Source of the DNA: Hormiphora californensis
Lineage: Eukaryota; Animalia; Ctenophora
NCBI GenBank assembly: GCA_020137815.1
Contig: CM035362.1
Span: forward strand, 2,604,001-2,668,000
Reading direction: 5' to 3'
Length of the DNA stretch: 64,000 bases
Below are positions 24,778 through 62,194 of this stretch, piece after piece. The notes under the pieces are model-generated. The model had not been told where the DNA came from and made no database searches. It worked only from the letters and a program-made list of their open reading frames with translations. Made by a program: the position numbers and the translations under genes. The number at the start of each line of letters is the position of its first letter. The stretch's first letter is position 1.

Positions 24778-24828
<51 letters not shown>

Positions 24829-24848
24829 CTCTTGCTCTCGCTCTCTCC
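23645..24848. repeat. Degenerate (GA)n tract followed by (CT)n
   Basis: Purine-rich low-complexity sequence that switches to (CT)n at about 24744. Confidence 0.85.
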
Positions 24849-27417: not shown

Positions 27418-27460
<43 letters not shown>

Positions 27461-29575: not shown

Positions 29576-29614
<39 letters not shown>

Positions 29615-37329: not shown

Positions 37330-40300
37330 ATGAGGTTGGTACAAATTAAACTGTTGTTGTGGAAAAATGCCGTGCTGATCAAACGAAAACCGGTAATTTG
37401 TTAGGATGTTGTCTTGATTGTTTGTTAAGTTCCTGAGGGCGTTCCTGATTTGTTGAATTGTTTAGATCTGCTCGTTTCATGTTTTGTAACAAAAGTCCTG
37501 ACTAAATTTACTAAACCCTAATCCCGATTCTTTCAGTGGGTAACACTCCTTCAAACAATTCTTCCGCTGGTATTATTCGTGATATTCGTAGCAGTCCGTT
37601 TCCGGCTTCCGCCCGTTAATGTCTCTGATAGTAAGTTTTACACCGGGTTTTGTATACCCTGAACCCTCTTGTTCTGTATAGGGTAGGAACCGACCGAATC
37701 AGGAAATACTGGTCCCTGATTGGCTGATAACCAGTCACGCGACCTAAATAACGAGTTTTGATTGGTTGTTTACTTGTGTCGGTCGGTTCTTGGTATAGGG
37801 CACCCTATTACTATTATTAGTGCCCCTCTTGTATCTTATCCAATTCTGTTTTTGTTCCTTACCATAGAGTTCTAACCTCCATCTCTCTTTCCCTCAGAGT
37901 TCTACTATGCCAAGCCCATGCCTAGTGCTGGGTCAGTTCCCTTTTTTCAGCACCTTCTATGTGATCCAATCAGCGGAAGACCTGAGATAAGAATGGAGCA
38001 TGTTTCACCCTACAAAACATATCCTGGAGCTGGGTGAGTTCATCATCTAGATGATATATCTCCCAACCAGGAACCGACCGAATCAGAAAATAATGGTCCC
38101 TGATTGGCTGATAACCAGTCACGTGACCTAAATAACGAGTTCTGATTGGTTGTTTACTTGTGTCGGTCGGTTCCTGGTGAGTTCATCATCTAGATGATAT
38201 ATCTCCCAATATTATCCTGTATATAGTTCAATCCTAACCACTCGGCCTCTTTACTTTTCTATCCTAACCCCTACTCCCGACCCTGAACCCTCATCGCAGC
38301 CCTCCCCTATCCTATCCTGACCCCCACACCATCATCCCTCCTCTACTCATTCCCCCTACAGGGTGTATCCAATGTTATCCCTGGTGGATAGTGTAGTTCA
38401 ACTTACAGATAGCTACACAGTTCTAACAACACTCCATACTCGCCTACTCCGGGAGACACTAAATGTAACCGATCCTGGGAACATACAGGCTGTCAAGGTA
38501 AGGGGTGTGTGTGTCACGTGATGTCCATATATGGTGTTATATGTCACGTGATAGTCAGGAACAACTCCGGGAGACACTAAATGTAACCGATCCTGGGAAC
38601 ATACAGGCTGTCAAGGTAAGGGGGGTGTGTGTCACGTGATGTCCATATATGGTGTTGTATGTCACGTGATAGTCAGGAACTACTCCGGGAGACACTAAAT
38701 GTAACCGATCCTGGGAACATACAGGCTGTCAAGGTAAGGGGTGTGTGTGTCACGTGATGCCCATATATGGTGTTATATGTCACGTGATAGTCAGGAACTA
38801 CTCCGGGAGACACTAAATGTGACAGATCCCGGAAACATACAGGCAGTCAAGGTAAGGGGTGTGTGTGGGTCACGTGATGCCCATATATGGTGTTATATGT
38901 CACGTGATAGTCAGGAACTACTCCGGGAGACACTAAATGTGACCGATCCTGGAAACATACAGGCTGTCAAGGTAAATGGGAAGTGAGAGTTCAATCAGTA
39001 TCTGTCTGGCGCCGCCGACCCCATCTGAGCGCACTGTTGAGAATCAAATGGGGTATGGGCGCCGCCATACAGATCAGTATCGCATATTTTGCCTTGCTCG
39101 ACCCTGTTTTACCGCGCTCCGGAGGAGGGTTAGAACATTAAAACAAGGCATATTATCGCTTATTGAATGAGTTTAGAGTTCGGAATTATTTCTGCAGTTT
39201 CTTAAGAACTCTTTACTTCTTCCCTTTCAGAATGGAATTGAGTCGCATCTAAACTCGGGTCTCCAACATCTCAATGATTCCTCCTCCGCTCTCCTCTCCG
39301 GAGATCCAGGCTCTTCGGTCAGCGGAATATTCGGAAACCTACTAAACCAAGAAACATCAGATCTCCTCCCTGAGTCCATCTCACTTAACAAAAAACAGAA
39401 TTTAGTGAAGGATCAGGATGTACAGAAGCGAGATTTGTCAGATTACCTGACCCCCATGTGGGGCGAGCAGATACCAAATGATGTTGTCCAGACTGAACCT
39501 GGGATACCTGAACCAACTGGTATTCCCCTTCTCGATATCGTGAGAGATCGTGGTCCTGAATTGCTTGCGGAGTAAGTTGTAACTTTTAATGAATTTAGTG
39601 CTCCTGAATTGCTTGCGGAGTAAGTTGTAACTTTTAATGTTGTAATCACTCCCAATCTCCCTCAGTCAAGAGGTGCTACAAGGTCTGGTCAGGGCAGCTC
39701 AGGGTTTACCGCTAGATAAAAAGGGTCGGGCGAAGGCTGAGAGAACGTTGGAACAGCTAACCAAGGAGTATCTCAAACAGAAATACTTGGAAAAAGTTAC
39801 TGGCAAAAAGGTACATTATCATTTGAATTCCATTTCCGAGTATAGTCTGTCAGAGCATTGGCCTGACTCATTCTCGTTTCTCTCAAATTTCTGAGCACGC
39901 GAGAACTGTGGTCAGAGCATTGGCCTGACAGAGTATAGTACCCAACTCTTCCTCCTATTCCACCCGAAAACCCACGAACTCCAACTGTTACCCTTCTCAA
40001 ACTGCAGGTTGAGATGAACGAAGAGATAAAGCACGTTCAGAAAGCGCTGTGTAGTGATCCCCTTCTAACATCTGACCCTGAGATACAATACGTCTGTGAT
40101 ATCGTACAACGCCGCAACATGTGAGTTTGCAGCCGTTATGTAGCTCATATCTGACAGCTGATCGTGATGGGACCAGATATGAGATGTAATCGATCACCTT
40201 TCATTATCTTTGATATATCGCGTGAATTAGCTGTTACCATTCTCGAGACAGTTGAGGCCTTTACCTTAATTACCTACTACTAGTTAATTCTTCATTAATA

Positions 40301-43300
40301 GTCCTATTTGTCTGATCTGCCAGGCATCGCGCTGACGAGTGATTGTCGGTTTATTTTTGATCCCCCGCTGTAACTCATTGATCTACCGAAGCCTCACAGC
40401 GGTGTGTGCGGCAGTGCACACGCTGTACCTAGACCATTTTATCTTGAACTATTAAATTGTTGACACTCCACCCCGTTTTCCTGTTAGTGTCACCCTACCC
40501 CGGCTAAAAACTTCTGAAACCTATCAAGATAATCAGATCTAGTGACCGGCTCATCTCGGATATCATCAGACCCAATTAGTAATCTTTTCCGCGGTCCTAC
40601 TCAAAGGAGTGATTGGAATGTGTGATAATTGGTTATATCTGGACCTCTAGCTGTCCAATTAGAGAACCTTTCCTACCAATGAGGGAGCTCGAGAGGGGGG
40701 TCTAACGCGTTATGATCACGTGATCAGTACAGGGTGGTATTTGAATCTCGAGCTCTCCTGGTTTCATCATCATTCTCAGCGTTCTCAGTCTTCTAAGCCG
40801 TACTTCTAACGTCTTGTGATAAGTACACTTATGTCTGTAGAATCTTTGTGATGATCAGTTCTTGTATCTAGCTTTGTAGTTCCATGTCATATTATAGGAT
40901 GGCACATGTCACTTTTATATGTACTTATGTAATGATTATTATGGCATGTCATGTTGTTTTTGAACAGTTGGTGGAGGAACCCTATTCATAATGTCCGACC
41001 CTTTTCGAGCATCCTACCATCTTTCTGAGCTAATCGTGGCAACTGAATCAACCAAGATAACTCTTCAACGCCCAAAAAGCAGCTCATTCACTCAGCTATT
41101 TAGTTTTTTAATTTCCCTGATTTCAAATCCCATGATCAGTATAATTTACAATTTCACAACCCACCCCCTCCTCCCCCGTGTCCCCGTGTCCTCAACAACT
41201 CTTCCCCAGATCTACGTTTGATGCCCTCACCCCTCCTCCCCCTCCCCCTCCTCCCGTGTCCCCGTGTCCTCAGCAACTCTCCCTCAGATCTACGTTTGAT
41301 GCCCTCACCCTGAACACTGTATCAATGGAGGTGCTGCTAGCTAGCAAGAGGATATCTACCCTAACCAAGACTGTTCAGATGGATCTAACGGCCCTACAAC
41401 GGTCTAACAAGACTCACTACCTAAAGGTATGTATGGCATGATGCTATCATTTCTTTCTCCTAGCTTCTACCCCAAAACCAATATCCCTATATCCCTACCT
41501 GCAACTAAATCCCAACAATCCCTACCTGCCTGCAGGGTCTGATGTGTGGGAAGGAGGAGACACCTACTACCCCTAACATGGAATCTGATATAGAATCCAG
41601 AACATTTGATGTCAAGTTGGGAATGTTGGTGAAATTAAAGAAGGCCAAGTTTGTTTTCTCTCCTGATACCCCTCCAGTGAGGAGGATCATCAAAAAGGTA
41701 TAGTTAATTAATTAAGGGAACTATCTAAAACCTTGAACTAGTACCACGACCTGTGGGAAATTCAGATCTTGTCTCTCAACAACCCGCCGGGCTAAGATCA
41801 TTGAACTAGTACCACGACCTGTGGGAAATTCAGATCTCACCTCTCAACAACCCGCCGGGCTACGATCTTTGAACTAGTACCACGACCTGTGGGAAATTCA
41901 GATCTCACCTCTCAACAACCAACCGGGCTACGATCTTTGAACTAGTACCACGACCTGTGGGAAATTCAGATATCGTCTCTCAAGAACCCACCCGGACTAC
42001 GAGCTTTGAACTAGTACCACGACCTGTGGGAAATTCAGATCTCATCTCTCAAGAACCCACCGTGCTACGATCTTTGAACTAGTACCACGACCTGTGGGAA
42101 ATTCAGATCTCATCTCTCAACAACCCACCGTGCTACGATCTTTGAACTAGTACCACGACCTGTGGGAAATTCATATCTCGTCTCTCAACAACCCACCGGG
42201 CTACGATCTTTGAACTAGTACCACGACCTGTGGGAAATTCAAATTTTTACCGATCCTGGGGTTCGGGGGGAGGGGGGTCTCACTCACATGTTCCTTTATC
42301 CAGATGAACAGGACCTTTGAAGAGGCAGTGAGGTTGAGAGAGATATCAACAGTGTGGATTCAGGAGAATTCACCCGCTTTAAAGGAATGCATCAGCCATC
42401 TTCAACCTTCAGTCACTCTTCTACAGGTATAGACTTTAGCTTCCCATCGTCGGTAGCCCTATTCATTAATACTGCTTTTGCTCCCCCGAGAATTTACCAC
42501 GCGTCTCATAACCGCTCATGAGTTGGCTCTAGTTCCCCTGTCCCGGGTCCCCTAACCTTTCTCCCCCCCCCCAGTTAGCAGGTGATATAGCAACCTGTAG
42601 CTCCTACAACCCCCACACTACCCCCCCCCCCAGTTAGCGGGTGAGATAGCAACATGTAGCTCCTACAACCCCCATACTATCCCTGCTGTTATGAAGGACT
42701 GGTTCGACCACGCAGTATCACAACAGAAAACCCTGGAGAACCTACTGAAAGTTGTGGAGGCATTCGATAGTAGCAGTTCTACCAATTGTAAGTGTGGTTT
42801 AACCCAAACATCATTATTGTTTTACCTCGCTTTTTGAAAGCTTGAATCCTCATAAATTGCTCGACCACTCGTAGGAGCTAGCACAAAAATGCAGAATTAC
42901 ACTAAATCGGTGTAGTTCTGCATTTTTGTGTTTTAGTACCTCCAAATTACAAACAATAACTCCCTCAACCAAGCTCGCAGCTTGCAGCATTGTCAAGTGA
43001 ATGCCAACTCCCTAATACCCAGTACCCCCTCAGATACCAACTCCCTAATACCCAGTACCCCCTCAGATACCCCCAACTCCCTAATACCCATTATACCCCC
43101 TCAGATACCCAGTTATTGCAGTTACACCCCATTCTACAGACTAGGATCACTAGAGAAAAGTTACTGGAGGGAATAGATCAGGTCAGTGAGATATATCGCA
43201 CAATCAGAGATTCAAAACGGGGTTTGGCGAGTTGCCAGATAGCATTTTACTGAGCATTTTAGTTTTACACAGAACGTAATGAACACTGGCAAGCACCACA

Positions 43301-46300
43301 TTGATCTAAACCAGGAACCGACCGAATCAGGAAATACTGGTCCCTGATTGGCTGATATCCAGTCACGTGGCCTAAATAACGAGTTCTGATTGGTTGTTTA
43401 CTTGTGTCGATCGGTTCCTGATCCTAATATATCATCTCCCAGGTGTCTTCCTTTCTTCAAGCCTACCTGGACGCTACAGATGATGTTGATTTTGATCTGT
43501 TTATACCCGCTGCAAACGCCTCAGAACTAGTAAAGGTAGAAATTCTTATTATAATTGCTCTCCTTGCAAGCGATTGTAACCGAAGCTGTTCCCTGTTCCC
43601 TGTCCCATACTGGCAGCTCATACCTCATGTTATGTAATATTCTCCTCCCCATGTCTCTACTCTGGCCCAAATGTAACACTCCCCTCCCTATTCAGTTTGT
43701 CAAGACAACAGATGAGCTTGTTTGGGCAGGGATAGTGTTTACTAATGTTAATGACACCATGCCATCCCGAGTGGAGTACACCCTCCGGATGAACGGACAA
43801 GTAAGTGGGGGTCCATCTCCCTGACCTCTCAATAGTAAAGGTATCCCTTGGTTACAACTCAGGAACCGACCAGGGAATACTGGTCCCTGATTGGCTGACA
43901 ACCAGTCACGTGACCTAAATAACGAGTTCTGATTGGTAGTTACTTGTTAATGTTTCGGTCGGTTCCTGTTACAACATTTTCCACTTTCCATACCTCCCTC
44001 TCTGATAAAGCTCTATTCATCTCCTTATAGGTGAAGGTGGGGACAGGAGAGGTAACTCTAGAACGGTTCTGGTCCCCCAACCCAATGAACGGATTCTCGC
44101 ACCGTCGATACGAGTGGAGTGGGTTCGCGTTTATACAGGTACCAAACATACAGATCACACACCACATGGCGTGACATGAGAGATCTTACAGATCCCTATA
44201 GCTGAATCTTTAGCTCAGCTCAGCAGTATACTGTCTCTGTTACCTGATTTTCACAAAAAACACCTACTGCTACTACCTAAACCGCAGATCGTATATCATC
44301 TTAGAATAGATCCCTATATAACAGCTATTCTGAATCTCAGTAGTAGACCACTTCAGGAATCAGGATCCGTTTGTTTGATGCTCTTGATTTTCACAACAAC
44401 ACTCCTACTCAGGACATCACAGATAGGGCCATTATAGCCCTGCAACAAGAACAGATAGGTGGAGGTGGGGAGCAGCAGCAGCTACCTGGATCATATGTCC
44501 AGGAGATACCTTACCCCTGTCATTGCTGGGATACGTGAGTAGTTAATTCCTGGGATAAGTGAGTAGTTAATTCCTGGGATAAGTGAGTAGTTAATTCCTG
44601 GGATAAGTGAGTAGTTAATTCCTGGGTTAAGTGAGTAGTTAATTCCTGGGATAAGTGAGTAGTTAATTCCTGGGATAAGTGAGTAGTTAATTCCTGGGAT
44701 AAGTGAGTAGTTAATTCCTGGGATACGTGAGTAGTTAATTCCTGGGATAAGTGAGTAGTTAATTCCTGGGATACGTGAGTAGTTAATTCCTGGGATAAGT
44801 GAGTAGTTAATTCCTGGGATACGTGAGTAGTTAATTCCTGGGATAAGTGAGTAGTTAATTCCTGGGATAAGTGAGTAGTTAATTCCTGGGATAAGTGAGT
44901 AGTTAATTCCTGGGATACGTGAGTAATCCCGGGACCACACGTTTACGAAATAACCATTTTTGTGGCACCTGCTACAGGCCATCCAGTATATGATATTCCG
45001 AGTTTTCCAAATATTCCTACCAAACACATCTCCAATTTCCCCAAAACTCCCAAATTCCAAAACTCCCACAATACCCTCAGGTTTCTGAGTCACAGTGTGA
45101 TAGTGCTACCCATGTCCCTGTGTATTAGTTTCGTGTACAGTGTGTGTGTTATTGTAAGGAATGTAGTTTACGAGAAGGAGACAAGGGTCAAAGAAGCAAT
45201 GCAACAGGTACACCAATTACCTTACTCTCGTTTTTTAAGAAACGCTTTAGTAAGAAACTTTTTTATAAGAAACTTTTCAAATGTAAATCACACAATTCAG
45301 AGACACCACAACAAAATAAAACACCCCTAACTTTTTTAGTTTCTTAATAAAGGAGAAATTCTTTTTGTTTTTGGATTGCTTACACCTGTAGTTTCCTAGA
45401 AAAAAAGTTTCTTGTTTAAAAGTTTCTTGAAATATGCGAGCTTAATTAACAAGAGTAAGGTAGTTCTTTAACCTCGAGTTATTAAACGCAATTCAATTTC
45501 TCCTCCGCTTTCCCTAAATGAAGAACTGAACTATCCAAACTCCGGTGTTCAAAACCAACACCTCTCTCTCTCCAGATGGGACTGAGTAACAGTGTTCACA
45601 GTCCCTCTCCCCCCTTACTAACAACTACCACCCCACACTAACACACCTCCCTCCCTCTCTCTCCAGATGGGACTGAGTAACAGTGTTCACTGGGCGTCCT
45701 GGTTCATCACCAGCATGCTACAAATGACTGTCACTACATCCCTTCTTACCATCATGCTCTATTATGGTATGTGAATCTTATTCCCTGTATTTCTTGATCT
45801 GTTGAACCCATACAGAGCTGTTGTGTGGGCTACATAATGTATTCCCCGCGTGATTTCTCCCCTACCCAACCCGCCACTTCGACCCCGATTGCCGTTCTCA
45901 CTCCCCTCCCCACAGGTAAGATCCTGACCCACAGTGATCCCTTTCTGTTATGGTTATTCCTGGAGGTGAGCTCCCTTGCAACAGTCAGCTTCTGTTTCCT
46001 TCTCTCTGTCTTCTTCAGGTTTGTCAGCTTCTGTTTCCCTCTCTCTGTCTTCTTCAGGTTTGTAGAATGCCCCCAACCCCCCAGCCTTCTAAATCTAAGT
46101 TTCCTATGCCGTTATTCAACCTTAAAACTACACATATTCCCCCTTGCCTTGTTCGACCCTCCTTCCCCGTTTGAACAAAACAAATCTCCCGCATGTAGTG
46201 AGGCGAAGTTGGCAGCGGCTGGATCAGGTTTAATCTACATAATCACCTACCTACCCTACACCCTCATATCTCAGAGTGATGGAATAGTTGTCAGCTTCAC

Positions 46301-49300
46301 TGCCAAATCTATTGTGGTACGTTAACACATGATGTTCACCCAGAATGTTTTGTCTCTCAAGACCTCTCTCTCTCACTACAAATCCTTTAGAGTTTTGCTA
46401 GTACCTCTCTCTCACTACAAATCCTTTAGAGTTTTGCTAGTACTTCAGCGACTGCCCTTGGAATTGAGTACTTCATACGGTTTGAAGAGCTGGGAGTGGG
46501 AGTACATTGGAACAACCTGTCACAAGGAGTGGTGAGTGGACATTGTTAAACATATTCTCTAGGATTTATTTTACATCATGTTTTCCACATTTCACCTCCC
46601 AAAAAACCTCTCCATCCTTCCCTCACCTCATTTCCCATCCTTCCCTCACCTCATTTCCCATCCTTCCCTCACCTCATTTCCCATCCTTCCCTCACCTCAT
46701 TTCCCATCCTTCCCTCACCTCCCCATCCTTCCCTCACCTCCCCATCCCACAGTTTCCTATGGACGACTACAACATGTTACGGTGTATCTGTACCCTGCTG
46801 GGAGATGCCCTTCTCTACTTTCTACTGGCCCTCTACATTGAGGGAGTCTGGCCTGGCATGTGAGTACTGCAGGGGGGGGGGGTTACTATGGTGACAATGA
46901 GGGAGTAGAGGGTGTTTTAGGAAGGGGGTTACCATGGTGACAATGAGGGAGTACAGGGTGTTTTGAAACAGGTGGTTTTGAAATTAAGGTTCCGCTAAAA
47001 CCAGTGAAGTGACTCACTCACTCACTCACTGAGCTCTGACCCATCACTAACTCTCTCACTCTCTCTGTCTGCAGGTATGGTGTCCCCAAGCCCTGGTATT
47101 TCCCTATCAAGTTTATGTTCTGGTGCCGACACCCTGCTCCCTCTAAAAACAGATATCTCTCCTACACCGACAATGAGATGCACGGTATGTTCTAACACCT
47201 GGCTTAGTGTGAGACATTAGGGCACGGTATGGTATGTATTGTGTTGTTCTAACCTTGTTCGACCCTCTCTTCGATCTCTCGTGTGTCCTAAATGCTAGCT
47301 GTTCATGGAGTACTCGTCAAACTTCACTATCTTGGCATGCATCTGAACCCGTACGCACCCTCTCCCCAGTCCGCTTCTAACCCCCTCTACCCAGCCCGCT
47401 TCTAACCCCATATCCCCAGTCCGCTTCTAACCCCCTCTACCCAGCCCGCTTCTAACCCCATATCCCCAGTCCGCTTCTAACCCCCTCTACCCAGCCCGCT
47501 TCTAACCCCATATCCCCAGTCCGCTTCTAACCCTCTCCCCAGCCCGCTTCTAACCCCATATCCCTGCAGCCCGTGATGCTGATGTAGAGCCAGTACCAGA
47601 GCACCTTACAGCCGGGGTGTCCATCTCCCAACTAGCCAAGAAGTACAGGGGCATGTCTAACTATGCTCTTTCTGGATTATCTCTGGAGTTATACGAGAAC
47701 CAGGTAACTCGATGTAGCTGTTATGAACCGACCGAATCAGGAAATAATGGTCCCCGATTGGCTGATAACCAGCCACGTGACCTAAACAACGAGTTTTGAT
47801 TGGTTGTTTGCTTGATTCGGTCGGTTGCTGGTTCTCTCCGATTTCCTTGTCCTTCAATATCCTCATTCATTTTCTCGCATCTTATTATCGGCCTACATGG
47901 ATTCCCTCATTACCATCTCCCATTCAGATTCTTACCTTTCTGGGCCATAATGGAGCGGGAAAGACTACGACTATGAGTATTCTCAGTGGTCTCTACCCTC
48001 CCAGTTCAGGGACCGCTACCATATATGGGAAGGACATCAAAAAGGACATGAGACTGGTAGGAGAGATACAAATTGAGGCGAGATTTATTGGCACTGGAGA
48101 TTTACAATTAACTGTTCAAATCAGAATATTTAACGTGATCTCTCTCACTCAGATCCGTCAAGATCTAGGAGTTTGTCCTCAATTCAATGTGCTGTTAGAC
48201 CATCTCACTGTGGAGGAGCACTTGTGGTTCTTTGCCAGCCTCAAAGGTATATATTGGGGAAATACTGGTCCCTGATTGGCTGATAACCAGTCACGTGACG
48301 TAAATAAAGAGTTCTGATTGGTTGTTTACTTGTGTCTGTCGGTTCCTGTATATTGGGGCCGGGGAGAGGATTGGGGTTAAATGGGGTATTGGGGTTAAAT
48401 ACAGGGGTATCTTATAGAAAATGGGAGAAACTTGGATCTCTAAATACTCCTGAAATGGTATCCGGGCTGGGTTGGGAAGGGGTTGAGGTTACATTCTCCC
48501 CTACACAGGTACACCACCTAATAAGATACTGGAAGAGGTGGAGACCTTTCTGAGAAGCGTGGGACTTGTTGAAAAAGGAAATCTGCAGGTTCACCAACTC
48601 TCCGGTATGTAGGGGCATAAAAACAATATAGGGGTATCTTTAGGAGTTCCAGAATATTACTAATACTCCTTGTCCCCATGCCACTCCTTTATTTTCTAAA
48701 CCCTCTAAAACCATGTAGTTCTAACCACTCTCCTTCACTTCAGGTGGTATGAAAAGGAAGTTGTGTGTGGCTATGGCATTTGTTGGTGGATCTCGAGTTG
48801 TTATATTGGATGAACCCACTGCTGGGGTAAGAACTGGACTAAGAACTAACTTCCTTGATTAATCGAATTAAATTACTAAGTTACTTTTGTTGATCAAATT
48901 CCTATAATCAGTTGCCATGACAACCGGAAGTTGAGCGTTTCAGATTCTAAAATTTAGTTTATTCAACTTCCTGCTGTACAATATTCCTCCCTGCTATAAC
49001 AGGTTGACCCATGGTCTAGGAGAAGTATCTGGGAGTTAGTTCTGACCCACAAACAGGACCGGACCATCCTCCTCTCTACACATCATATGGACGAGGCAGA
49101 CCTGTTGGGGGATAGAGTTGCTATCATTTCACGAGGTTCGTTGTAAACATAACAGGTACAGGTACAGGTATAAATCTTCTCTTTTCTCAAGGGTTCAATC
49201 ATTGGGCCGGGAAGCGACTGCAAAAACCCCATCTCCCCCATTTGCCTCACCATGTTTCATCTCAGGAAAGTTGTTGTGCTGCGGATCACCACTTTATCTT

Positions 49301-52300
49301 AAGGCTCGCTTTGGACCTGGATACTACTTGAACATCGAAAAGGAATCGGGTATACTGTTCATTCATGATAGCTTCAATACTCCGTTCAAGATCTTCTTTT
49401 TAATTTTCCTTCCCCATTAATCAGTTTCACCCTATTTAGTGCCCCCTCTAAATACCCTCTCCCTCCCAGTTTACTCAAGTGCCCCCCTGAACCCTCTAAA
49501 TACCCTCTCCCTCCCAGTTTACTCAAGTGCTCCCTCCCTCTAACCCCTCACCCTCCCAGTTTATTCCAGTGCCCCCTCTAAACAGCACCTCCCTCCCAGT
49601 TTACTCCAGTGCCCCCTCTTCCTCTTCCGGTGGTGGCTCTGAGCACTCTACATCTCTCCTAGAGGATAGTGGGTTCATAGGGAACACTACTATTGGGGAT
49701 CTGGATGGGAGTATGATGCTTCAGAAACACAGTGTTGCATTCGATCAGATACAGACTACCAGGTAGGATTCAGGAAATACTGGTCCCTGATTGGCTGATA
49801 ACCAGTCACGTGACCTAAATAACGAGTTCTGATTGGTTGTTTACTTGTGTCGGTCGGTTCCTAGTATGCTACAGAAACACAGTGTTGCTTTCGATCAGAT
49901 ACAGACTACCAGGTAGGATTCAAGCAGTGTCTTGAATAGCTTCATAAACTAGTGTTATACAAGGTGTACAAATTATCTCAGATAATTGTCCGATTACATT
50001 ACTATCAGATGACACAAAACAAAAGTACCCACCATAGGAGTAACTAACTCGCCCTATTTAGGTTGATCCAGAGTTACGTACCCCGAGCTACGATCCACTT
50101 CAATACCGACCTAGAGATCTCTTACCTGCTACCTTGGGAGGCCTTTCAAAAGGGTAGGAACTCTGGAACTGGGTGTTTCACTTAGTAACCATCTCACCAG
50201 CTAAATCTTCATTGAAATAGAATTCGGAACTCTAAACTTGATCACTATAACATCCCCAGACAAACCTCATAATCCAAGGCATAAACTAACCATCTCCTCA
50301 TCTCCACAGGCGTGTTCCCGGATCTGTTCAAGTCACTAGATGAGGGAAAGGGAGATCTGGGTATCAAGTGCTATGGTGTCATGGACAGCACCCTTGAAGA
50401 GGTTGGTGTGAGTGTCAGTGTGTCTCTAATGTCCCTCATGTTAGGGATTTGGACTACCCGTATTTCAGTTTGTACCTGATGTTCATTACAACTCCAATAC
50501 CCCCTGATCCCCTTCTTCATGCAGAACTCCAATAGCATTCCAATCCCCCTCCCCAGGTATTTCTGAATGTGTCTGAGGGAGCTAACACTGCCGATGAGAA
50601 GAAGGAGGTGGATGGGTCAACCACAAACCTACTCGGTGCTACTAAACAGGATCAGGATGACATCATCGATATGCCAGGTGAGAGAGCAACCCCCTGAGAT
50701 TCATGAGACAAATCAGTTGGCGATTTATGAGTTTTAGTAACTTGATGACTGTGGAACATTAATACAGAATTTTGCTATTTTCGCTACCCCTCCCCCAGAA
50801 ATTCCCGCCCATTTACCCCCCCCCCCCTCAGATTTGGACTATGCCGGTTCGGGTGATACAGGTGTGCCCCTATCTAAACAAGAAATACCACCTTCCAGTA
50901 ACTGCAGACAAATACAGGCACAACTCGCCAAGAGGTAAAGTGCAGTTGGTTATGTCCCAGTTGCAAGAGGTAATAAGGGTCTACTTTTGATTTACCGGAG
51001 CTCTAGCACGATTTACCGTCCTAGATTTTATGCTCACCTTAACCCCCTTGGCCTCTCTTGGTAGTACCCACCTGTAACCAATCTCCTGCTCTAGGATCCA
51101 CCATACCCGCCGTGATTTCTGGGGTCTATTCTTCCAGCTGGTCCTACCTGCCATCTTTGTATCTCTAGCCATGTTGATCTCCGTAGCACGACCTCACATT
51201 GACTCAGGTATTTTCCTCAGCATTGGTAGGGGCTGGGTAGTACCCAGTGGGTAGTGGGTATAGTATCACCAGCAACTAGATTTGTTCCACCGTGAGAAGC
51301 ATGATATCTTCTCTAGTCCAATATTTATATTTGTGGGCGCAGAGGGAGAGGGTCGAACAGGGTAATTATCTTCCAGGTAAAAGTCTGGAGCTGACTGTGG
51401 ACATGTTCAAACACCCGTACTACGTTCCCTTTGCTGATAATAACACACACGGAGCTGGAAGGCTGGCTGAGTTAGTAGGATACCCTGCTGGACCATGGAG
51501 TCCACCTATAGGTGAGTGATTTGGAGAATAATGAAGGATAACAGTGTGTCTCTTGTAATTAGAGAATTCGTATTCTAATTACATTACCGACTATGTTCCC
51601 TACCCAGATGATGAAGTGTTAATGTTGAGGAACTTTACGGCCCCCAAACACACTCCCACCCTCCCATTCCCCTGGACACACTACTGGAACAGTCCCCTGG
51701 GTAAGTTTGTGTGACGTCATGATGAGACATGAGACAATGCTTGGCTGGAGAACATTCCCGAACATATCAAAATCTAATTCCTGTTTCCCTGAAACTATGA
51801 AACGGCTGTTTTGGAGTTGATAGTCATGTGTGAAAAGTCTCAATTCATGCTATCTTGGTATGGACCCCCTGGAGAAAGCTGTTTTTCACTTTAGTAGCTG
51901 TTCTAACCATCTCCCATTCAGACGGTTGTGGTAACCACGAGTACCCCGAGATACCGGCAATGTTAGAATTCACCGCTCTATCTGGGTACAAACTACAGAA
52001 CCTGACTGGGTGGAATCTGGAACGGTTCTTATTGCACACCAATCATCGCTACATCTTCCAGAGGTACTGGGTGAAGTATGGTGGAGATTGGGGATGTGAA
52101 GTGTTATTATAGTGAAGTTGTTAGATAGTGTTCTGTGTAGTGTTTGGTTGCCAAGCTAGACTGCGATGTAAAGGGAGGGTTAGAACATAACAAGTGTTTG
52201 GGAGATGCTGCGCGGCGAAGGAATCTTGTTTTCAAGTGTTCAATTTAAGAGGTAGGGGCGGGGGTAACACCACCACCACAACCACCCCCAGGTATGGAGC

Positions 52301-55300
52301 ACTAACAGTTGGAGAGTGGCACAATGATCTACGGAAGTTCGCCCCAACCAACTGGACTGAAAGTTACCTTTCTAGTAAGAGCTTCACAATACTGCAACAA
52401 ATAAAATAGCTCACGATCGACCATTGACAGCTCCTCTCCAAACAGTAACCACTGCAACCCCCCTGTCATAACTCCTGCCCCCCCCCCCCCCTTAAAAACC
52501 CAGCCCCCATCCAGGCACTCACAACTACTGTACCCCCTCATAACTCCTGCCCTCTTCCTAGAATGGAGTGCATATAACCCAGAGGCGGCTAAAGCATGGC
52601 ACAGCTACAGAGGTGCCCACGCTCTGCCTACATACCTCTCTGCTGTCAGTAACATTGTCCTACGATCCGCCCTGCCACAAGGTATGAGAGAGAGAGGGAA
52701 GTTGTAGATTAGTATTTTGATACTGACAATGGATCGCAAACTGCACTGCAGTACATACTTCGGTATCTGTTTTGTTTTGTTTTGTATCTTGGAATAGGTC
52801 CCTAACTCCCATTATTCCCTGGTCATCGTTTCCTAAACCCCCACTCCGTCTAGATTGGCGTAACCAGTCCCGGTATGGTATAGTTGTATCCACCCACCCT
52901 CTCCCTAAAACCCCCCCCCCCCCCACAGATTGGCGGAACCAGTCCCGGTATGGTATAGTTGTATCCACCCACCCTCTCCCTAACGACCCCCCCCCCCCCT
53001 AGATTGGCGTAACCAGTCCCGGTATGGTATAGTTGTATCCACCCACCCTCTCCCTAACACCCCCCCCCCCCATATAGATTGGAGGAACCAGTCCCGGTAT
53101 GGTATAGTTGTCTCCACCCACCCTCTCCCTAACACCCCCCCCCCCCCACAGATTGGCGGAACCAGTCCCGGTATGGTATAGTTGTATCCACCCACCCTCT
53201 CCCTAACGACCCCCCCCCCCCCCCCCCCTAGATTGGCGTAACCAGTCCCGGTATGGTATAATTGTATCCACCCACCCTCTCCCTAACACCCCCCCCCCCC
53301 CTAGATTGGCGTAACCAGTCCCGGTATGGTATAGTTGTGTCCACCCACCCTCTCCCTAACACCCCCCCCCCCCTAGATTGGAGGAACCAGTCCCGGTATG
53401 GTATAATTGTATCCACCCACCCTCTCCCTAACACCCCCCCCTAGATTGGCGGAACCAGTCCCGGTATGGTATAGTTGTCTCCACCCACCCTCTCCCTAAT
53501 ACCTCCCCCTAGATTGGAGGAACCAGTCCCGGTATGGTATAGTTGTATCCACCCACCCTCTCCCTAATACCCCCACCCCCTAGATTGGCGGAACCAGTCC
53601 CGGTATGGTATAGTTGTATCCACCCACCCTCTCCCTAATACCCCCCCCCCCCTAGATTGGCGTAACCAGTCCCGGTACGGTATAGTTGTCTCCACCCACC
53701 CTCTCCCTAATACCCCCCTCCCCCCCCCCCCCCCCTTAGATTGGATGAACCAGTCCCGGTATGGTATAGTTGTATCCACCCACCCTCTCCCTAATACCTC
53801 CCCCCCCCCTAGATTGGCGAAACCAGTCCCGGTATGGTATAGTTGTCTCCACCCACCCTCTCCCTAATACCCCCCCCCCCCCTAGATTGGCGGAACCAGT
53901 CCCGGTATGGTATAGTTGTATCCACCCACCCTCTTCCTAACAATGGCTCCCTGGCTGACATATGGGAGATAATGGATGAGGAGAGTTATGACCTGGTTAT
54001 CAGTGTGTTTATCATTGTAGCTCTCAGCTTTGTTCCTGCTAGTTTTGTGCTCTTCCTAGTCAGAGAGAGGTAAGAAATCAGATTTTGATAATGTACTCGA
54101 GACACTCGACCTTTAATTCCCAATGTATATCTCGGCTATGTTAGCTAATATCTTTGTTATGTTCTAAGGGCCTTTCTTAACGAGACAAAAACTACAATTG
54201 CACCCTGCAATTGCACCCTGCAATTGCAGGGTGCAATCCACTTTCTGTCTCGTTAAGAAAGGTCTTTGCACCCTGTAGGGGTGTAACAGGAGGACCTATT
54301 ACACCCTGCAATTGCACCCTACAATTGCACCCTACAACTCTCGTTAAGAAAGGTTCTTGTAGGGTGCAATTGCACCCTTTACACGTGACCCAGTCACGTG
54401 TGCAATGAACGTGGGAAGTTGAGGGGTAGTGAAACATGAAACCCGGTTTACGGGGCATTGTTTATCATCACCTATTGGCATTGATACACACAGCATTACC
54501 ACATCAACATGGCACGTGACTGGGTCCTGTGTGAGGCATGCAATTGCACCCTACAACTTTCTTTCTTAACGAAGGTTTGCAGGGTGCAATTGCAGGGTGC
54601 AATTGCAGGGTGCAAACTCTCGTTAAGAAAGAAGTTTGTAGGGTGCAATTGCAGGGTGCAATTGCAGGGTGCAGCTCGTTAAGAAAGGCCCTTAGTTAGA
54701 ATCTAATGGCCTCCTTTACAATTGTTGTGGAAAAAGAGGGTCGAACAAGGGGGAGGGGGTCTCCCGCTAATCCCCTCACCTCAGGTGTTCGTGTCTCTAC
54801 CTGTTGGAATGTATAGCTGGTGCCCGTGTGTTCCCCTACTGGGCTGCTAACCTTATCTGGGATCTGGTATCTTTTACTGTTGCTAACACAGGTACTGCAC
54901 AGCTTCACTGAGATTAGTTTGTCACAGTTTAACTAAATGGAGTTTTTCTACTTCTTCACTGCTATTTTCGTGCTTGATATGTCACAATGCGGGCTGGGTT
55001 CGTTGAATGGGTAAGGGGCCTAGGGCGGCTAGGGGAGGGTGGGGACATCTCTACACATGTTTCAGGTTGTATTCTAGTAGTTCTGATGTTCCATTCTCCA
55101 TCCTTCTCAAGCACTGACAATATCCCTGCAATTATCGTACTGATGGCCCTCTACTCCTGGTCTATCACACCCCTCATGTAAGTATCACGTGATTCCCATA
55201 TATGGCAATGACCATATTTGGTAATAATACCGTATTTGGTAGGTATCTGTGTTCTCACACCTTCTCGGAGAGCAACAACGCTTACGTCACGATGATTTGT

Positions 55301-56247
55301 CTGAATACTTTCTTTGGTATAACCACCACCCTGACAACATTCTTAGTGGAGTTCCTGGCACCAAACGAGATCGGGTACGTGATGGGTGTTCAGATTGGGT
55401 ACATGTAGGTGATTATATAGTGGGGTATCTGATTGGATGGATTCGGAAATCTAGATAGCACAGGTCCCAAAATTAAGAGTTCTGGGATAGTGACGGGTCT
55501 TTGGTTCCTTCCGGTCGGTGGGAAGTTTTGGGAAGGGGGGGGATAATAACAATTCCCACACAGGTTCATTAGTTTCAATAACTTCCTAAAGTACGCCTTC
55601 CTACTGCTTCCCAACTACTGTCTGGGTCGGGGTATAATGGACCTAGCTGGCAATCAGTTCCTTAATGATATCAAGGTCAAATTTGGTAAGTGTGAAACCT
55701 AGAGCACTCCCCCCAAGCTCACATAACACCGCCCCTTGTTACTCAACAACCGCTCCTAGAGGTAGAACATCGGTTTCACCAAGACTTTAGTGCCTCCGGT
55801 TTCACCTAGACTTAATTGCCCCAAAATAACAAGATTATCATGATGCAGTATTGACTTGTTGCCTGCTCAACTACTTCCCCGCCTTGTTTGCCCATTACCT
55901 CCCGCAACCCCCCCCCCCCCCCTATATCCTCAACTACCCCCCACCTTCCTCAGGATACCCGACTGAGTCTCCGTGGGAGTGGGAGCTAATTGGACGGAAC
56001 TGTGTCTTTATGGGTGCAACAGGTACGAAAAAGTCAGGGTTTTTTAAATGAGAAGAAAGTTTAAAAATAATTAAATTCAGTATTTGAATAAGTTCCCCTT
56101 CTGAGAATAGAATCTCATATGGTCTTGTGCTCTTGTGCTCTTGAGTTCTTGTCAAGCTTGTATAACACTGATATGATAGGTATATCTCTCTCTTTCTGGC
56201 TTGGTCTTGGTCTTCGTTCTCTCTCTTTCTATCTTGATCTTGATCTT

Positions 56248-56306
<59 letters not shown>

Positions 56307-59300
56307 ATCATGGTCTTGGTCTTGACCTACTTGATTCAAGGATCTAGATTTTGGGATAGAGGGTTTTGTGGGTTGACCGTACCCACAGAGCCATCAACCA
56401 ACCAGGCTCACGGCAGAGGGACGATGATCACACAAACAAAACAAGAAGTAGAGTTTGTGTGATCATCGCTGGTACGAAGAGTCACTGTGCAATTGACTGT
56501 AATTTTAGAATGGCAAATGGCAATTGTACAGTGACTCCCCCCTCTGGGAACCCGAACCCTCCCACGCCTCCCCCGTATCCTGCTTGCCAGGCAGAATAGG
56601 AGTCAGAGTGAGAGGACCCGGGAACCGCTGATAAACAGCAAAAGGTCGCCAATAGGCCTACTTGCCAGTAGAATCTCTGGAGGTTGAAGCAGGACAGTCA
56701 GTCACGAGGCAGTGAGACCAAGAGAACCAGACAGGATGGAGAGCCGGAGCACACACGTCTCACTAAAGGCTTACTCCATCTGTAGGATAACGGAATCCGC
56801 TGAGGGGACGGGTGCGTCCTTACCCGGTACAAGACCGAGCTCTACATCCGTCTGAACCTCAACGGTAGAGGAATTACCTGACTGGCCAGCTATCCTCCGT
56901 GCTGCCCGGTCTACGACCTGGGAAATTGCCAGCCAGGATTGGCGTCCAGATTCCTTGATGAGGTCCCTAGTGGCCATGTGCTCACGCACAAGTACATCTA
57001 GGAGCTTCACCAAGGCAGCTAGACTGTGGGCCTTGGAGTCTGTCTGGTGTCTCTTGATGTCATCTGCCACGCGAAGGACACCCCACTTCAGTGCTGTCAG
57101 GTTGTCAGCGACACGGGCTCCCGAAGAAGCAAGGTCAACAGTGACTCCCTGAACAGACGCCTCCAGAGAACTGAGCCTCCTCGCAAAAGCGTGGAGGCCG
57201 ACAAGTATTGTAGACAACGCCGCTAGGACGAGGATGCCGACGAAGAGAAGACAGATTTCTACAGGAGAAATCATAGTTTACGAAACTTGCGGTGCGGTGT
57301 GAAAACAACAGCAAAGCAATAGCAGTAAACGGGCAAAGAACCTGCACGTGCTACCCTGGGTTATATAGACCTCCTGGTAGCCATGGTTACTGACTGGATT
57401 TGACACACTTCTTGCACGTGCTAGGCTTGTCAGGGGACTGGAGGGTGATACTTGGGCTCTAGTCAGCACTTTTAACCAGCCAATAAAGTCAACTTATTAT
57501 TCCCTAACCTTCCACAAAAGGAGAAAGACAATTAACTATCTTCCTCCCCGTTTCAGGTGTTGTGTTTCTGCTGATTCTGGTGGTTGTCTCAGTTCCTAGA
57601 AAGGGAAAGAGTATCAATGTGCCCAATGTTAACAAGGAACTTGAGGATGATGATGTTAGGTAGGTGTGATGGCTGATGTCCTTCCTCTTCCCTACCCCCT
57701 CCCTAAACCCTTCACTGTACCCCGGCCCCTACCCCCAATAGAAAGGAAGAACTAGGCATTAGGTGCATTGTGAGTTTATTGTGTAGTTGTGCATGTTTTT
57801 ATTGCTGACACTGGTTGATACGTGTTCCATAACAGGGCTGAAAGACAGAGGACCATCTACTCGTACTCGTATAGCGATGTTCTGAAAGCCCAGAACTTGT
57901 GTAAGGTGTACAAGAAGGGGAAGTTCGTTGCAGTTAACCGGTTATCATTCTCTGTATCACCTGGTATGTTAACATTCCTGTTGTAGTACTCCATAGAGGA
58001 CATGACAACATGGTTTCTTCATGTCTCTACAACCCGCTTGGCTCTTATTTTTTTCTAACCGAGCAAGAATGATGTTTTGTTTTGCCCCTTCTTCTCCCCT
58101 TAAAATCTTCCCCTGCAGGAGAGTGTTTTGGGTTGCTAGGTATAAATGGCGCTGGCAAGACAACAACATTCAAGATGCTAACTGGACAACTCAGACCTTC
58201 AAATGGGGACGCTGTAAGTTTTAAATCAACTCCCCTTACCTCCATCTCTCCCCTAAATTCTACCCACTCCATTCCTTTTCTCACTTCCTTTTTCTAAACT
58301 CCCTCCACTCGCTTTCCCTTCCTCCCCAGTCACCTCTCCAGTATCGTCCCTCGACTTCACCCCTTCTTCTTCACTCCCCTTCAAACCACTCCTCCAACAC
58401 CCCTCCTCTCCCCAGGTGGTATGCCAAATGAGTTTGAAACAGCAGCTGGTAAGAGCCCGCCGAAAGCTGGGTTACTGTCCCCAATCTGATGCCTTGTTAC
58501 CCACCCTCACCTCTCATGAGACACTTGGCTCTGTTTGCAAGGCTCAGGGGAATCCCTGAGAGCCAGATTGAATACATCTCAAAACAGGTGATTACTGAAC
58601 TCCAATCAGGTAGTATAGACTACCTATAGTAGTAGTGGAGCATAAATTTCACCCTAACTATCTTCATCTTCCTTGTCTCACTAGACTGCCCTATCCAAAC
58701 CGGGCCCTCTCTGAACTGTGAAGCACACGTAATATAAAGAAACATTCACTAACTATCCCCCATCTTCCTATAGATAATCCGGTTGGTAGGTTTGACGAGT
58801 TATGCCAGTAGACCCTGTGGTAACCTACAGTGGTGGAAATAAGAGGAAACTATCGGCAGCAGTAGCACTGATTGGGGAACCTCGACTAGTGTTGCTAGAT
58901 GAACCTACAGCAGGTACTGATCTGACAATTAATAAGGGGAAATTAGCTAAATAAGGGCCGAAACTAGGGAAAAATTTGTAACAAGCTAATTCCTTCACCA
59001 ATTGGTCCCTATGGGTCCCTAGAATCACCAAAAAAAAAATCACAAAAAATCCGCGATGGCTAAGTTGGGTTTTTGGACCACGCCCTTTTACCTGTATTTT
59101 CAGTCATGTGGTCAAAAATCTAAATTCTCTTAGAATATGAGTAAAGAAGAAAATAAGGGCACTAAACTGTGTAGCGTCCTCGCATTAGTGGGGGTAGACG
59201 CCCATGAAAAGTCTCTATCTCATTTGGTTAATTAGATAATTGGATAATTAGATCTGCGCATAGCCGTTTTTGGCCATACGGCTATAGCCACTTAGGAATA

Positions 59301-60108
59301 GTTTAGAGACTTTTCACTGGCGCCATTTTGTAGGCAATGGCCAAGTTATGGGGGGTCGACGTCGGACTTTTAAGCTCTAACTCCAACCGTTTAGCCGATA
59401 TTTGGCTTCAAAGGTGCTCAAAATCGGGCTTTTTACCGTTTTTTGCTCATTTTGAGCACCTTTAAAGCCAAATATCGGCTAAACGGTTGGAGATAGAGCT
59501 TAAAAGTCCGACGTCGACCCCCCATAACTTGGCCATTGCCTACAAAATGGCGCCAGTGAAAAGTCTCTAAACTATTCCTAAGTGGCTATAGCCGTATGGC
59601 CAAAAACGGCTATGCGCAGATCTAATTATCCAATTATCTAATTAACCAAATGAGATAGAGACTTTTCATGGGCGTCTACCCCCACTAATGCGAGGACGCT
59701 ACACAGTTTAGTGCCCTTATTTTCTTCTTTACTCATATTCTAAGAGAATTTAGATTTTTGACCATATCTTACTATATAATGCAAAAACACCCGAAACTTG
59801 ATCCCACCCATGCATGTTTGGTGGTCCCTAAATCGTCGTCATCAAGATCAGATCACATCACCCAACATGCATGATCAGATCACCCTACTGAGGATCAGAT
59901 CCCCCCACCCAAGATCAGATCACCATACTGAGGATCAGATCCCCCCACCCAAGATCAGATCATCCCATTGAGGATCATATCACCCCACCCATGATCAGAT
60001 CACCCCAGTGAATATCAGATCCCACATTTCACCCAGCAGTCCACTGTGCGTGATGAGATCCCCAAAATAGACAAAGACGACAGAGAAATTGAGATAGAAA
60101 TGAAGAGA

Positions 60109-60202
<94 letters not shown>

Positions 60203-60244
60203 AAGGAGAGAGACAGACAGAGGCAGAGACAGAGACAGAGACAG

Positions 60245-60327
<83 letters not shown>

Positions 60328-62194
60328 CAGAGACAGCGACAGAGACAGAGAGACACATAGACAGAGAAACAGAGCGATACGAAAAACGAGGAATTTCCTA
60401 GGTGTTTTTAGTTTAGTGTACGTCGCTTGAGTAATCAATTAATTGTAAGCCATCCGTAGGATGGTCTGGGTCCACTAGTCGTCCCTACTACTGGTTTACA
60501 ATCACCATTCTTATACTTTGAAATAATCCCACTGGGCTCCTATTTTACTAAAATTCTTTCTATCGGTATCACGAATGCAAAAAGTTATTCCCCCATTTCC
60601 AGGTATGGATCCTGGTGCCAGGAGGTCTCTGTGGGGTGTTATACAAGCTGAAAAGAGGCGTGGTAAAGCTCTGATAGTGACATCACACAGCATGGCTGAA
60701 TGTGAGGCACTCTGCTCTAGGATAGGAATCATGGTGGATGGGAGGTAAGGGTTGTAACTGCATGTCTGGTGGATTCTATTCTTTAATTCTGATCATAATC
60801 TTCATAAATATTCTTGAAGGTTCCTGATCTCTCACACCCCGCTAATTGAATAAGTCTCAACAACCTACCACCTCACACCCCCACTAATTGTCTCTACGAC
60901 TCACCTCCCCCGCTAATTGCCTCTCTCTCTCATCTGCAGGTTGAGATGTCTAGGAAGCACCCAGAGGCTGAGGGACAAGTATGGAGCGGGGTATGTTATA
61001 CACTTGAAGTTGAACCCTCATACAAGTAACATTGGAGCAGCTAAAACCTATATCACCCGACATCTACCTAACTCAGGTATAAACATGAACCCCCCCCCCT
61101 CCTCCTTCTCCCCTCCTCCCCCTCCTCCCCGATACAGATAATGGTTTGGTTCAGCTTTGTTATCTGCACGGTGTCGCATAGCTATATCTGTACTATCTGT
61201 ACTGGCGAGGAGTATGTTGCATTGTGCCTACAAACTCATGGCTGAACCAACAGCATGATAGCTCCACCTTCTCACGTGTAGTTAAAACTCTCTACTACTG
61301 TTTAGTTCACGTGTAAAAGTTTGCATCTCTTCTCAGCTCGATTCATCGGTGCTCCTTTCGCCAATCCCAATGAATAAATCCATTTTATCATCCATCACAA
61401 TAATAAAACATGCCCCTTATGAATTACTCATAACGACTATGTTATCGACTCAACGTAACCCATCTCCATAATACGTGTTATGTTTAGTCTGAGGTAGAGT
61501 CTAATCACTCTCTCCCACCCATACATAGCTGCGGTAATAGGGAACGAATGCTTTAAAAAACACATCTCCATACTACTATTTCTACGTGTTATGTTATGTT
61601 ATTTTAACCACTATCTCCCACGTCAATCTAAGATATTCTCTGCTAACTAATCTCTCTCTCCCACCTCAGTTCTGACCAATCATAATACTATTAACAATGT
61701 TTAGTCTGAGGTTGCCCCAGTTTAACCACTCTCTCTCTCTCCCACCTCAGTTCTAAAAGAGGAGAACTCATACAGTCTCAAGTTTGAACTAAAGCTGAAG
61801 GGTGGATGTGCTGTGGCTGATATATTCAGGGTACTACAAAAGGCTAAACCTGTCCTAAACCTGTTGGACTATGCTGTTCACCAGACCAACCTTGAACAGG
61901 TGAGGGGGAAATATCTGGGTTTTCGGTGCGATACCTAGCAGCGAAATACCAAACTCAAGAGGGTCTACCATTCAAATTGTTAGGGGTTATAGAAGTTAAT
62001 CAGTTTATAAAAGTCTTATTCCTGAATCGATGGAATGCAAAAACATTGCAACCTAATAACCCTTCCTGCCTCAGGTGTTTATCAACTTTGCACAAAGTAG
62101 GGAAAAGAAAGCTACGACACTCGAGGATCAACTGTTATGTGTCGATGACCCTAGTGTTCCCGTAGGAGACCTTGAACTGGCTTTTGATCAGTGA
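37330..62194 (+). CDS. ABCA: ABC transporter subfamily A (ABCA1/2/4/7-like), about 56 exons
   Basis: N-terminus [13 protein letters not shown]; [16 protein letters not shown]; NBD1 [26 protein letters not shown]; NBD2 [26 protein letters not shown]; C-terminal LEQVFINFA. Two apparent +1 frameshifts at about 58521 and 58822. Confidence 0.95.
37684..37792. mobile_element. MITE family B
   Basis: Perfect 8-bp TSD gtataggg. Confidence 0.9.
38068..38176. mobile_element. MITE family B, flanked by a ~33-bp duplication
   Basis: gtgagttcatcatctagatgatatatctcccaa occurs on both sides. Confidence 0.9.
38444..38976 (+). repeat. ~118-bp tandem repeat x5 (exon end + donor + short intron)
   Basis: The unit encodes [18 protein letters not shown]|gtaag. 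Confidence 0.95.
39002..39072. mobile_element. Mini-element family C (71 bp)
   Basis: atcagtat|ctgtctggcgccgcc...gcgccgccatacag|atcagtat. Confidence 0.85.
39847..39931. mobile_element. Mini-element family D (85 bp)
   Basis: agtatagt|ctgtcag...ctgacag|agtatagt. Confidence 0.85.
41733..42242. repeat. ~68-bp intronic minisatellite, about 8 copies
   Basis: Unit ttgaactagtaccacgacctgtgggaaattcagatct... Confidence 0.95.
43312..43420. mobile_element. MITE family B
   Basis: Full-length copy with both TIRs. Confidence 0.9.
43860..43968. mobile_element. MITE family B
   Basis: TSD ttacaact/ttacaaca. Confidence 0.88.
44526..44926 (+). repeat. 24-bp tandem repeat x17, each unit containing the splice donor
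   Basis: Unit ctgggata(a/c)|gtgagtagttaattc. Confidence 0.97.
45220..45460. mobile_element. TA-flanked MITE
   Basis: TA|ccttactct...agagtaagg|TA. Confidence 0.65.
46612..46745. repeat. ~23-bp tandem repeat upstream of an acceptor
   Basis: ccatccttccctcacctcatttc, about 6 copies. Confidence 0.9.
47364..47573 (+). repeat. ~25-bp tandem repeat x8-9 resembling the branch point and acceptor
   Basis: cccag(t/c)ccgcttctaacccc...; the real junction is gcag|cccgtg at 47570. Confidence 0.85.
47725..47830. mobile_element. MITE family B (diverged)
   Basis: Matches the family consensus. Confidence 0.85.
48258..48348. mobile_element. MITE family B (5'-truncated)
   Basis: Matches the consensus; flanked by a gtata(ta)ttgggg duplication. 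Confidence 0.85.
49770..49862. mobile_element. MITE family B (5'-truncated), flanked by a ~60-bp exon-end duplication
   Basis: Matches the consensus; atgct(t/a)cagaaacacagtgttgc...accag|gtaggattca occurs on both sides. Confidence 0.85.
52851..53942 (+). repeat. ~73-bp tandem repeat x15 (acceptor + first 18 codons of the exon)
   Basis: YAG|attggcgNaaccagtcccggtatggtatagttgtNtccacccaccctctccctaaY + poly-C. Confidence 0.97.
54168..54691. mobile_element. PIF/Harbinger-like MITE with internal (tgcaattgcaccc)n repeats
   Basis: ctaa|gggcctttcttaacgag...ctcgttaagaaaggccc|ttag. Confidence 0.8.
56771..57274 (-). CDS. Nested intronless 167-aa ORF (N-terminal TM or signal anchor + helical region) antisense within an ABCA intron
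   Basis: ATG-initiated, non-repetitive ORF; hydrophobic [21 protein letters not shown]; TATA-like ctatataa at 57368-57361. Confidence 0.55.
   Translation of the reverse strand: MISPVEICLLFVGILVLAALSTILVGLHAFARRLSSLEASVQGVTVDLASSGARVADNLTALKWGVLRVADDIKRHQTDSKAHSLAALVKLLDVLVREHMATRDLIKESGRQSWLAISQVVDRAARRIAGQSGNSSTVEVQTDVELGLVPGKDAPVPSADSVILQME
59109..59764. mobile_element. Fold-back palindrome (~315-bp arms) in an ABCA intron
   Basis: tggtcaaaaatctaaattctc... / ...gagaatttagatttttgacca, ~25-bp spacer near 59435; true element ends unclear. Confidence 0.85.
59844..60025. repeat. ~20-bp tandem repeat
   Basis: gatcagatcaccc... units. Confidence 0.85.
60103..60372. repeat. (GA)n / (GAGACA)n microsatellite
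   Basis: Direct reading of the sequence. Confidence 0.95.

Follow-up and report, generated by a model that had tools for sequence, protein, structure and literature searches.

Tandem splice-junction copies in an ABCA-family gene of the ctenophore Hormiphora californensis differ from the working exons mostly at silent sites

Minisatellites that run across exon-intron boundaries have been described as 'mirages' in the lancelet (amphioxus), where they occur in Adh3, the globins BflGb6 and BflGb9, troponin C and PGBD5 (PMC3087553, PMC3902484). According to the available part of PMC3087553, they are unstable in length and do not disturb splicing; the mechanism generating them is called unclear, and intron gain is proposed. 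Somatic instability also belongs to the mirage type. Further lancelet cases are given in the available part of PMC3902484. The junction repeats of an ABCA-family transporter gene of the ctenophore H. californensis, located in a 64,000-nucleotide stretch of DNA (the window), are a dense ctenophore case of these already described mirages (PMC3087553), to which a silent-site bias is an addition. As in the lancelet, so far as the available portions of those papers describe it, the ABCA copies are tandem or near-tandem, cross exon-intron boundaries on both the 5' and 3' sides, keep GT/AG, have units (24-118 bp) inside the reported range of 10-160 bp (PMC3087553) and differ in number between haplotypes (exon 18, exon 19, exon 24). 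Unlike the lancelet cases, the host is a ctenophore and 15 of the 55 introns of a single gene carry splice-site copies, usually with part of the adjoining exon. The silent-site bias and the allele sharing seen here have no counterpart in the available text of PMC3087553, from which the word 'synonymous' is absent, or in that of PMC3902484.

In human F7, the first unit of a 37-bp VNTR in intron 7 holds the exon-intron junction, and of 5-9 identical donors only the most upstream is used (PMC1557585, available part). This VNTR is one locus, on the donor side, with tested splicing, whereas the ABCA copies lie on both sides and at many sites, with exon-proximal use predicted from the sequence. Human CBS 844ins68 duplicates the intron 7/exon 8 acceptor. 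Its duplicated exon edge is unlike the working copy, and gene conversion between forms has been proposed (PMC2630376, available part); the extra CBS copy masks a harmful missense change, whereas the extra ABCA copies carry mostly silent changes. In the Rogers model, applied to ATP2A1, introns are gained by tandem duplication of AG/GT from exon DNA (PMC3265369, available part). Short intragenic duplication with an unchanged protein is common to that model and to ABCA, but in ABCA it is junctions already present that are copied, into introns already present, and no intron there was found to be new. In the open-licence literature, supplements aside, we found no report of such repeats from a ctenophore and none of silent bias in mirage-type copies; 12 of 16 relevant passages of the H. 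californensis genome paper (PMC8527503) contain no description of such repeats.

The gene lies as follows.

37330..62194, forward strand: ABCA-family transporter gene, 56 exons, 55 introns (median 202 bp)

All 55 introns are GT-AG, the median exon is 119 bp long, and at every duplicated junction the model takes the first donor or the last acceptor. The model comprises 2265 codons if two single extra bases (58525 and 58824), which break the frame in the second nucleotide-binding domain, are skipped; judged from the window sequence alone, both are probably consensus errors. The model aligns with two animal ABCA proteins (P0011 and P0013) at 36-39% identity, the first-pass model matched P0002 at 57%, and the Pfam domain ABC_tran was found on exon 25. 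An ABCA exon query gave a single match among proteins of at most 2000 residues, and a query against representative proteins gave 13 weak matches; one of the latter, P0003, does not align with the gene model. Intron 44 (55178-55242, 65 bp) has no pyrimidine tract ahead of its AG, and its junction was fixed by homology.

An unbiased diagonal scan of the whole window, made after removal of microsatellites and dispersed repeats, identified 23 local duplications in ABCA introns, compared with 0, 0, 0, 1 and 0 in five block-shuffled controls. Eight, absent from the initial annotation, are wholly intronic. The initial annotation had named 15 ABCA sites with junction copies, and the scan recovered copies at all 15:

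38033..38209, forward strand: intron 3 duplication, 34 bp, from the donor (1 exon base), flanking a 105-bp high-copy element
38444..38975, forward strand: exon 4 donor array, 118 bp x 4.5, 54 exon bases
39550..39639, forward strand: exon 5 donor duplicate, period 48, 22 exon bases
41160..41310, forward strand: exon 8 acceptor duplicate, period 78-80, 23 exon bases; open frame if the decoy is used
42563..42683, forward strand: exon 11 acceptor duplicate, 59 bp, 50 exon bases
43004..43110, forward strand: exon 12 acceptor copies, 33-38 bp x 3, at most 6 exon bases
44522..44925, forward strand: exon 16 donor array, 24 bp x 16.8, 13 exon bases
45564..45690, forward strand: exon 18 acceptor duplicate, period 91, 24 exon bases
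45984..46063, forward strand: exon 19 donor duplicate, 39 bp, 35 exon bases; open frame if the decoy is used
46366..46443, forward strand: exon 21 acceptor duplicate, 39 bp, 14 exon bases
47357..47573, forward strand: exon 24 acceptor array, 25 bp x 8.6, 4 exon bases
49438..49616, forward strand: exon 31 acceptor array, 40-48 bp x 4, 17 exon bases
49716..49922, forward strand: exon 31 donor duplicate, 57 bp, 47 exon bases, flanking a truncated 105-bp element
52837..53942, forward strand: exon 42 acceptor array, about 73 bp x 15, 57 exon bases
61651..61754, forward strand: exon 55 acceptor duplicate, period 81, 4 exon bases

Both boundary types are affected, with six donor-side and nine acceptor-side events. 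At least 10 exon bases are copied in 11 of the 15, only 4-6 at 43004-43110, 47357-47573 and 61651-61754, and a single one in the 38033/38176 copy, where an inserted element lies between the copies; those at 49716/49866 likewise border an inserted element. The extra junction copies add to intron length, as had been proposed, and make up 2948 of the 18065 ABCA intron bases (16%). The description of the introns as 'filled' with copies was overstated, since the extra copies reach half of the intron length or more in 7 of the 15 affected introns. In the region 14100-30000, which may include genes, a score of at least 30 is reached by none of the 7 local repeats, versus 19 of 23 in ABCA. Duplicated acceptors are richer in C than the remaining ones (0.57 versus 0.42, P = 0.002, a post hoc comparison), which may be a cause or a consequence of duplication.

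Junction copies were also present in the two other genes for which they had been noted, namely GALNT (2226/2133 and about 1940/2010) and a gene at 31173 that was read by eye (31297/31329 and 32838-33024).

2099..2249, reverse strand: GALNT acceptor duplicate, period 93
32838..33024, forward strand: donor-side array in the gene at 31173, 60 bp x 3.1

The window scan found no strong junction duplication in a multi-exon gene at about 4900-14040 (reverse strand), labelled by eye as encoding a membrane protein; thus, the density of duplications differs between genes.

Tandem copies of this kind might be created in assembly, if the exon edges of two haplotypes were joined one behind the other, which would also give allele-like silent differences. 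The sample is heterozygous, the two probable consensus errors lie in the window, and the copy numbers of the three largest arrays (38444-38975, 44522-44925 and 52837-53942) are assembly figures. Against such an artefact, contigs from sequencing runs (X1, which may be the source sample, X5, X6 and X7 were compared) contain several of the copies. Both exon 11 copies occur on one 332-base X1 contig with 0 differences, and both exon 19 copies on one contig of another sample (run X6) with 8 differences and no gap. A contig of run X5 diverges from 46025 onward, so that this allele lacks the exon 19 decoy, and an X5 contig that spans the exon 18 decoy returns 133 bases, which indicates a further exon 18 copy in that allele. 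The exon 31 acceptor array is partly spanned in another sample. Joints in intron 23 skip 72-299 bases in X1, X5 and X6, from which it follows that the exon 24 acceptor array varies in length; it is shorter in other alleles. One X1 contig contains the duplicate in the interior of intron 22, which a second X1 contig and X6 skip; in X1 and X5, the middle part of intron 18 is either skipped or exchanged for other sequence. The junction copies are genuine and polymorphic DNA, and intron interiors turn over fast. Mis-assembly is unlikely, given that several copies, three pairs among them, are spanned by run contigs and that alleles differ in copy number; the exon 42 array, moreover, has 12 distinct exon-part versions among 15, which two haplotypes could not supply. 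An artefact is the least probable of the readings considered here. The X7 run, compared over 45700-52369, shares the species label of X1 yet shows differences at 13 of 68 exon 18 bases; it may represent a cryptic species or carry a wrong label.

All 56 ABCA decoy sites retain GT or AG and score like real sites on matrices built from the 55 ABCA junctions; in the exon 16 array, 12 of 16 decoys score higher than the real donor. Use of a decoy leads to a premature stop in 54 of the 56 cases, and the model uses exon-proximal sites throughout, which bears out the earlier statement that the frame requires the first donor and the last acceptor. Skipping of the decoys in this animal is accordingly a prediction from the reading frame. 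Contigs of X7 (guessed to be RNA, about 81-93% alike and perhaps lacking the decoys) join exon 18 to exon 19 and exon 26 to exon 27, and in this possibly decoy-free animal exon 19 ends at the first donor, 46018, and is joined to exon 20; these joins support the gene model. Reed and Maniatis in 1986 reportedly found that, with truncated exon sequence beside a duplicated site, the outer site is used.

The initial annotation had further proposed that junction DNA is preferentially duplicated. In the null distribution, units were placed randomly on the ABCA gene with its extra copies removed, and placements wholly in an exon or crossing a whole exon or intron were barred; a palindromic-element duplication (54192-54673) was dropped beforehand, so that 22 of the 23 events were counted. 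Junction-spanning events (at least 3 exon bases) make up 14 of the 22, against 5.6, 7.3 (elements removed) or 8.4 (full periods) expected (P = 1e-4, 0.002 and 0.009). On the assumption that copies anchored in an exon can be recognised for twice the time, the expected number is 8.7-11.7 (P = 0.014-0.21). When at least 10 exon bases are required, 11 events stand against 4.6-6.0 expected (P = 0.001-0.013, or 0.06-0.23 after the persistence correction). The preference thus holds as an excess of about twofold over the geometric null, with no clear excess once longer persistence is allowed, and a mutational bias is unproven. The suggestion that such duplication is an intron-gain mechanism was not borne out: none of the 55 ABCA introns has the end repeats of an exon-derived intron, the longest end repeat being 6 bases.

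A rival account of this distribution is slippage on a single chromatid, with copies arising anywhere, a survival filter that loses those in exons, neutral decay of the others, and no exchange between decoys and working alleles. By geometry alone, 5.6-8.4 of the 22 events should span a junction, a number that longer persistence raises to 8.7-11.7; eight duplications are internal to introns, and the initial events show, by eye, short microhomologies at several breakpoints or an inserted element. What separates slippage from recombination with working alleles is the codon position of the differences between copies.

The decoy exon parts were compared with the working exon in the working frame, with 4 bases trimmed per breakpoint and with events of at most 6 exon bases left out of the variant count. 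Synonymous changes make up 19 of the 25 distinct decoy variants (76%), against 27% expected (P = 5e-7), although these variants derive from 7 events in ABCA, the gene that supplies most of the data, and are not independent, as five changes in one copy may represent one import. The untrimmed count is 20 of 27, and shifted-frame controls give 4/25 and 3/25. Under a second null, with free mutation of the decoys and silent changes accruing in the working copy (43% expected), P is 8e-4; dropping any single event leaves P at or below 1e-4 and 0.013 under the two nulls. Variants that differ between decoys of one array are synonymous in 13 of 17 cases, and summed over copies pS is 0.153 and pN 0.018. 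By event, the synonymous share is 5/5 in the exon 4 array, 3/4 in exon 11 (all third position), 2/2 at both the exon 31 acceptor and the exon 31 donor, and 7/9 in exon 42; the exon 16 array (0/2) and the exon 19 copy (0/1) go in the opposite direction, and four counted events have no variant. In GALNT, one exon of which is closest to proteins of Mnemiopsis leidyi (80%) and Bolinopsis microptera (78%), the decoy independently has synonymous changes in 3 of 4 variants. Slippage with neutral decay predicts about 27% synonymous, or at most about 43% if the working copy changes, whereas 76% is observed, and in frame only. Slippage as a full account is therefore unlikely.

Coding constraint on the decoys could also be kept up if they were themselves used, through alternative or regulated splicing into protein. 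All decoy dinucleotides are intact with scores like those of real sites, and the frame stays open with two of the ABCA decoys and with that of GALNT. Use of the GALNT decoy would add 31 residues, however, which are absent from the M. leidyi homolog; all ABCA events with silent-biased variants lead to a premature stop when the decoy is used, and the sole in-frame decoy with a variant carries a nonsynonymous change. Protein-coding use of the decoys is thus highly improbable. Because the silent-biased ABCA decoys cannot be translated, the constraint must come from the working exon, and since the variants fall mostly at silent codon positions, the exon pieces were likely copied from working alleles rather than being decaying junk.

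Two of the donor-side events involve a 105-bp non-coding element with inverted ends, which has a very high word depth in the sequencing runs and nine copies in the window.

2372, 13361, 37685, 38069, 43313, 43861, 47725, 48258, 49767: copies of the 105-bp element

Relatives of the element were found in two metagenome contigs (L001:220-300 and L002:1022-1110); at these two short loci no junction duplication could be defined, and the element has no Rfam match. Its flank repeats range from about 7 to 57 bp. Insertion that resembles retrotransposition or is linked to repair might make long target duplications near donors and so seed the arrays. The donor copies of 34 and 57 bp flank the element, other element copies have flank repeats of 7-10 bp, some copies are truncated at one end, and six of the seven ABCA copies begin at most 61 bases from a donor; the exon 4 array, in addition, has a 64-bp filler and a final unit that continues differently. 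Yet insertion of this kind accounts for none of the nine acceptor-side and at most three of the six donor-side events, and a target duplication is identical at birth, so that silent differences would go unexplained without later recombination. As the general source of the copies, element insertion is very unlikely.

We consider it probable that the ABCA copies are mirage repeats in which junction duplications are tolerated through exon-nearest splicing and the exon parts are renewed from working alleles by recombination. Such repeats would start with a duplication, arising next to an inserted element or where short microhomologies allow template switching or slippage. Selection would remove copies wholly inside exons, whereas junction copies would persist because the first donor and the last acceptor restore the exon; leaky splice products would probably be destroyed by nonsense-mediated decay. 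The population is very polymorphic, with mainly silent differences in the exons and large replacements in the intron interiors. Exchange between homologues, through unequal crossing-over and gene conversion, would then carry working exon edges into the array, and the working copy may later be replaced by another allele, leaving the decoy as a snapshot of its source allele. Arrays could gain units from different alleles through unequal exchange, and a decoy may sometimes be moved to the working position, where harmful changes would be purged. If this turnover outpaces neutral decay, decoys would come to resemble the set of coding alleles. The junction excess would stem partly from geometry, introns being short, and partly from an exon-anchored template that is never lost, and possibly also from breakpoints gathering where homology between homologues ends.

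Serial copying would account for the layout of the exon 4 array, in which the two units adjoining the exon are exact copies of it and the two farther units are not; in the exon 42 array, no clear polarity is visible. Exon SNPs in the runs are synonymous in 30 of 32 cases among those in the best 40 of 750 and best 40 of 168 rows. Within the same best 40 of 750 and best 40 of 168 rows, which is why only one was matched, at least one decoy variant corresponds to a segregating allele, that at 42675, which also segregates in the working exon (X1, X6). A rough estimate from the missense/silent ratio suggests that the residence of a decoy is a small fraction of the allelic coalescence time. In a wider and more speculative reading, which we regard as rather doubtful, ctenophore introns would be a renewable archive of past coding alleles: decoy-exon swaps in a very large population would let purifying selection act on untranslated DNA by way of its chance of promotion, and duplications would favour exon edges because the homology of divergent homologues ends there.

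This signature in the codon positions of untranslated copies is open to measurement wherever a genome has such arrays, and it makes the origin of mirages testable. If the ABCA pattern is general, intron growth would be tied to population polymorphism, and an early-branching animal would pick exon-proximal sites among many intact decoys despite its short introns. It would also be a warning for annotation, as such copies mimic exons with low dN/dS.

Several other repeats and open frames were observed in the window, which gave 0 Rfam matches over its 64,000 nucleotides. A decayed older copy of the GALNT acceptor and exon start, seen by eye, seems to lie at about 76-200 (reverse strand), with the working acceptor, at 76, downstream of it. 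In the gene at 31173, one intron (31600-32447) has its opening bases repeated on either side of an inverted-repeat element and also in tandem (33 bp x 2). A 21-bp x 43 array with 93% identity occupies 35231-36135, and all three forward frames are open in its displayed part. Three long, near-perfect palindromes with arms 96-99% identical lie at 954-1904, 25336-26976 and 59109-59764; two of them are intronic, and that at 954-1904 breaks up the GALNT donor-side repeats. Within ABCA intron 47, an antisense open frame of 168 codons (56771-57277, reverse strand), with no Pfam match over the cut-off, may be a nested gene or an element fragment. A 23-bp duplicate at 62192-62240 starts at the ABCA stop codon and is thus a further copy at the edge of the coding sequence.
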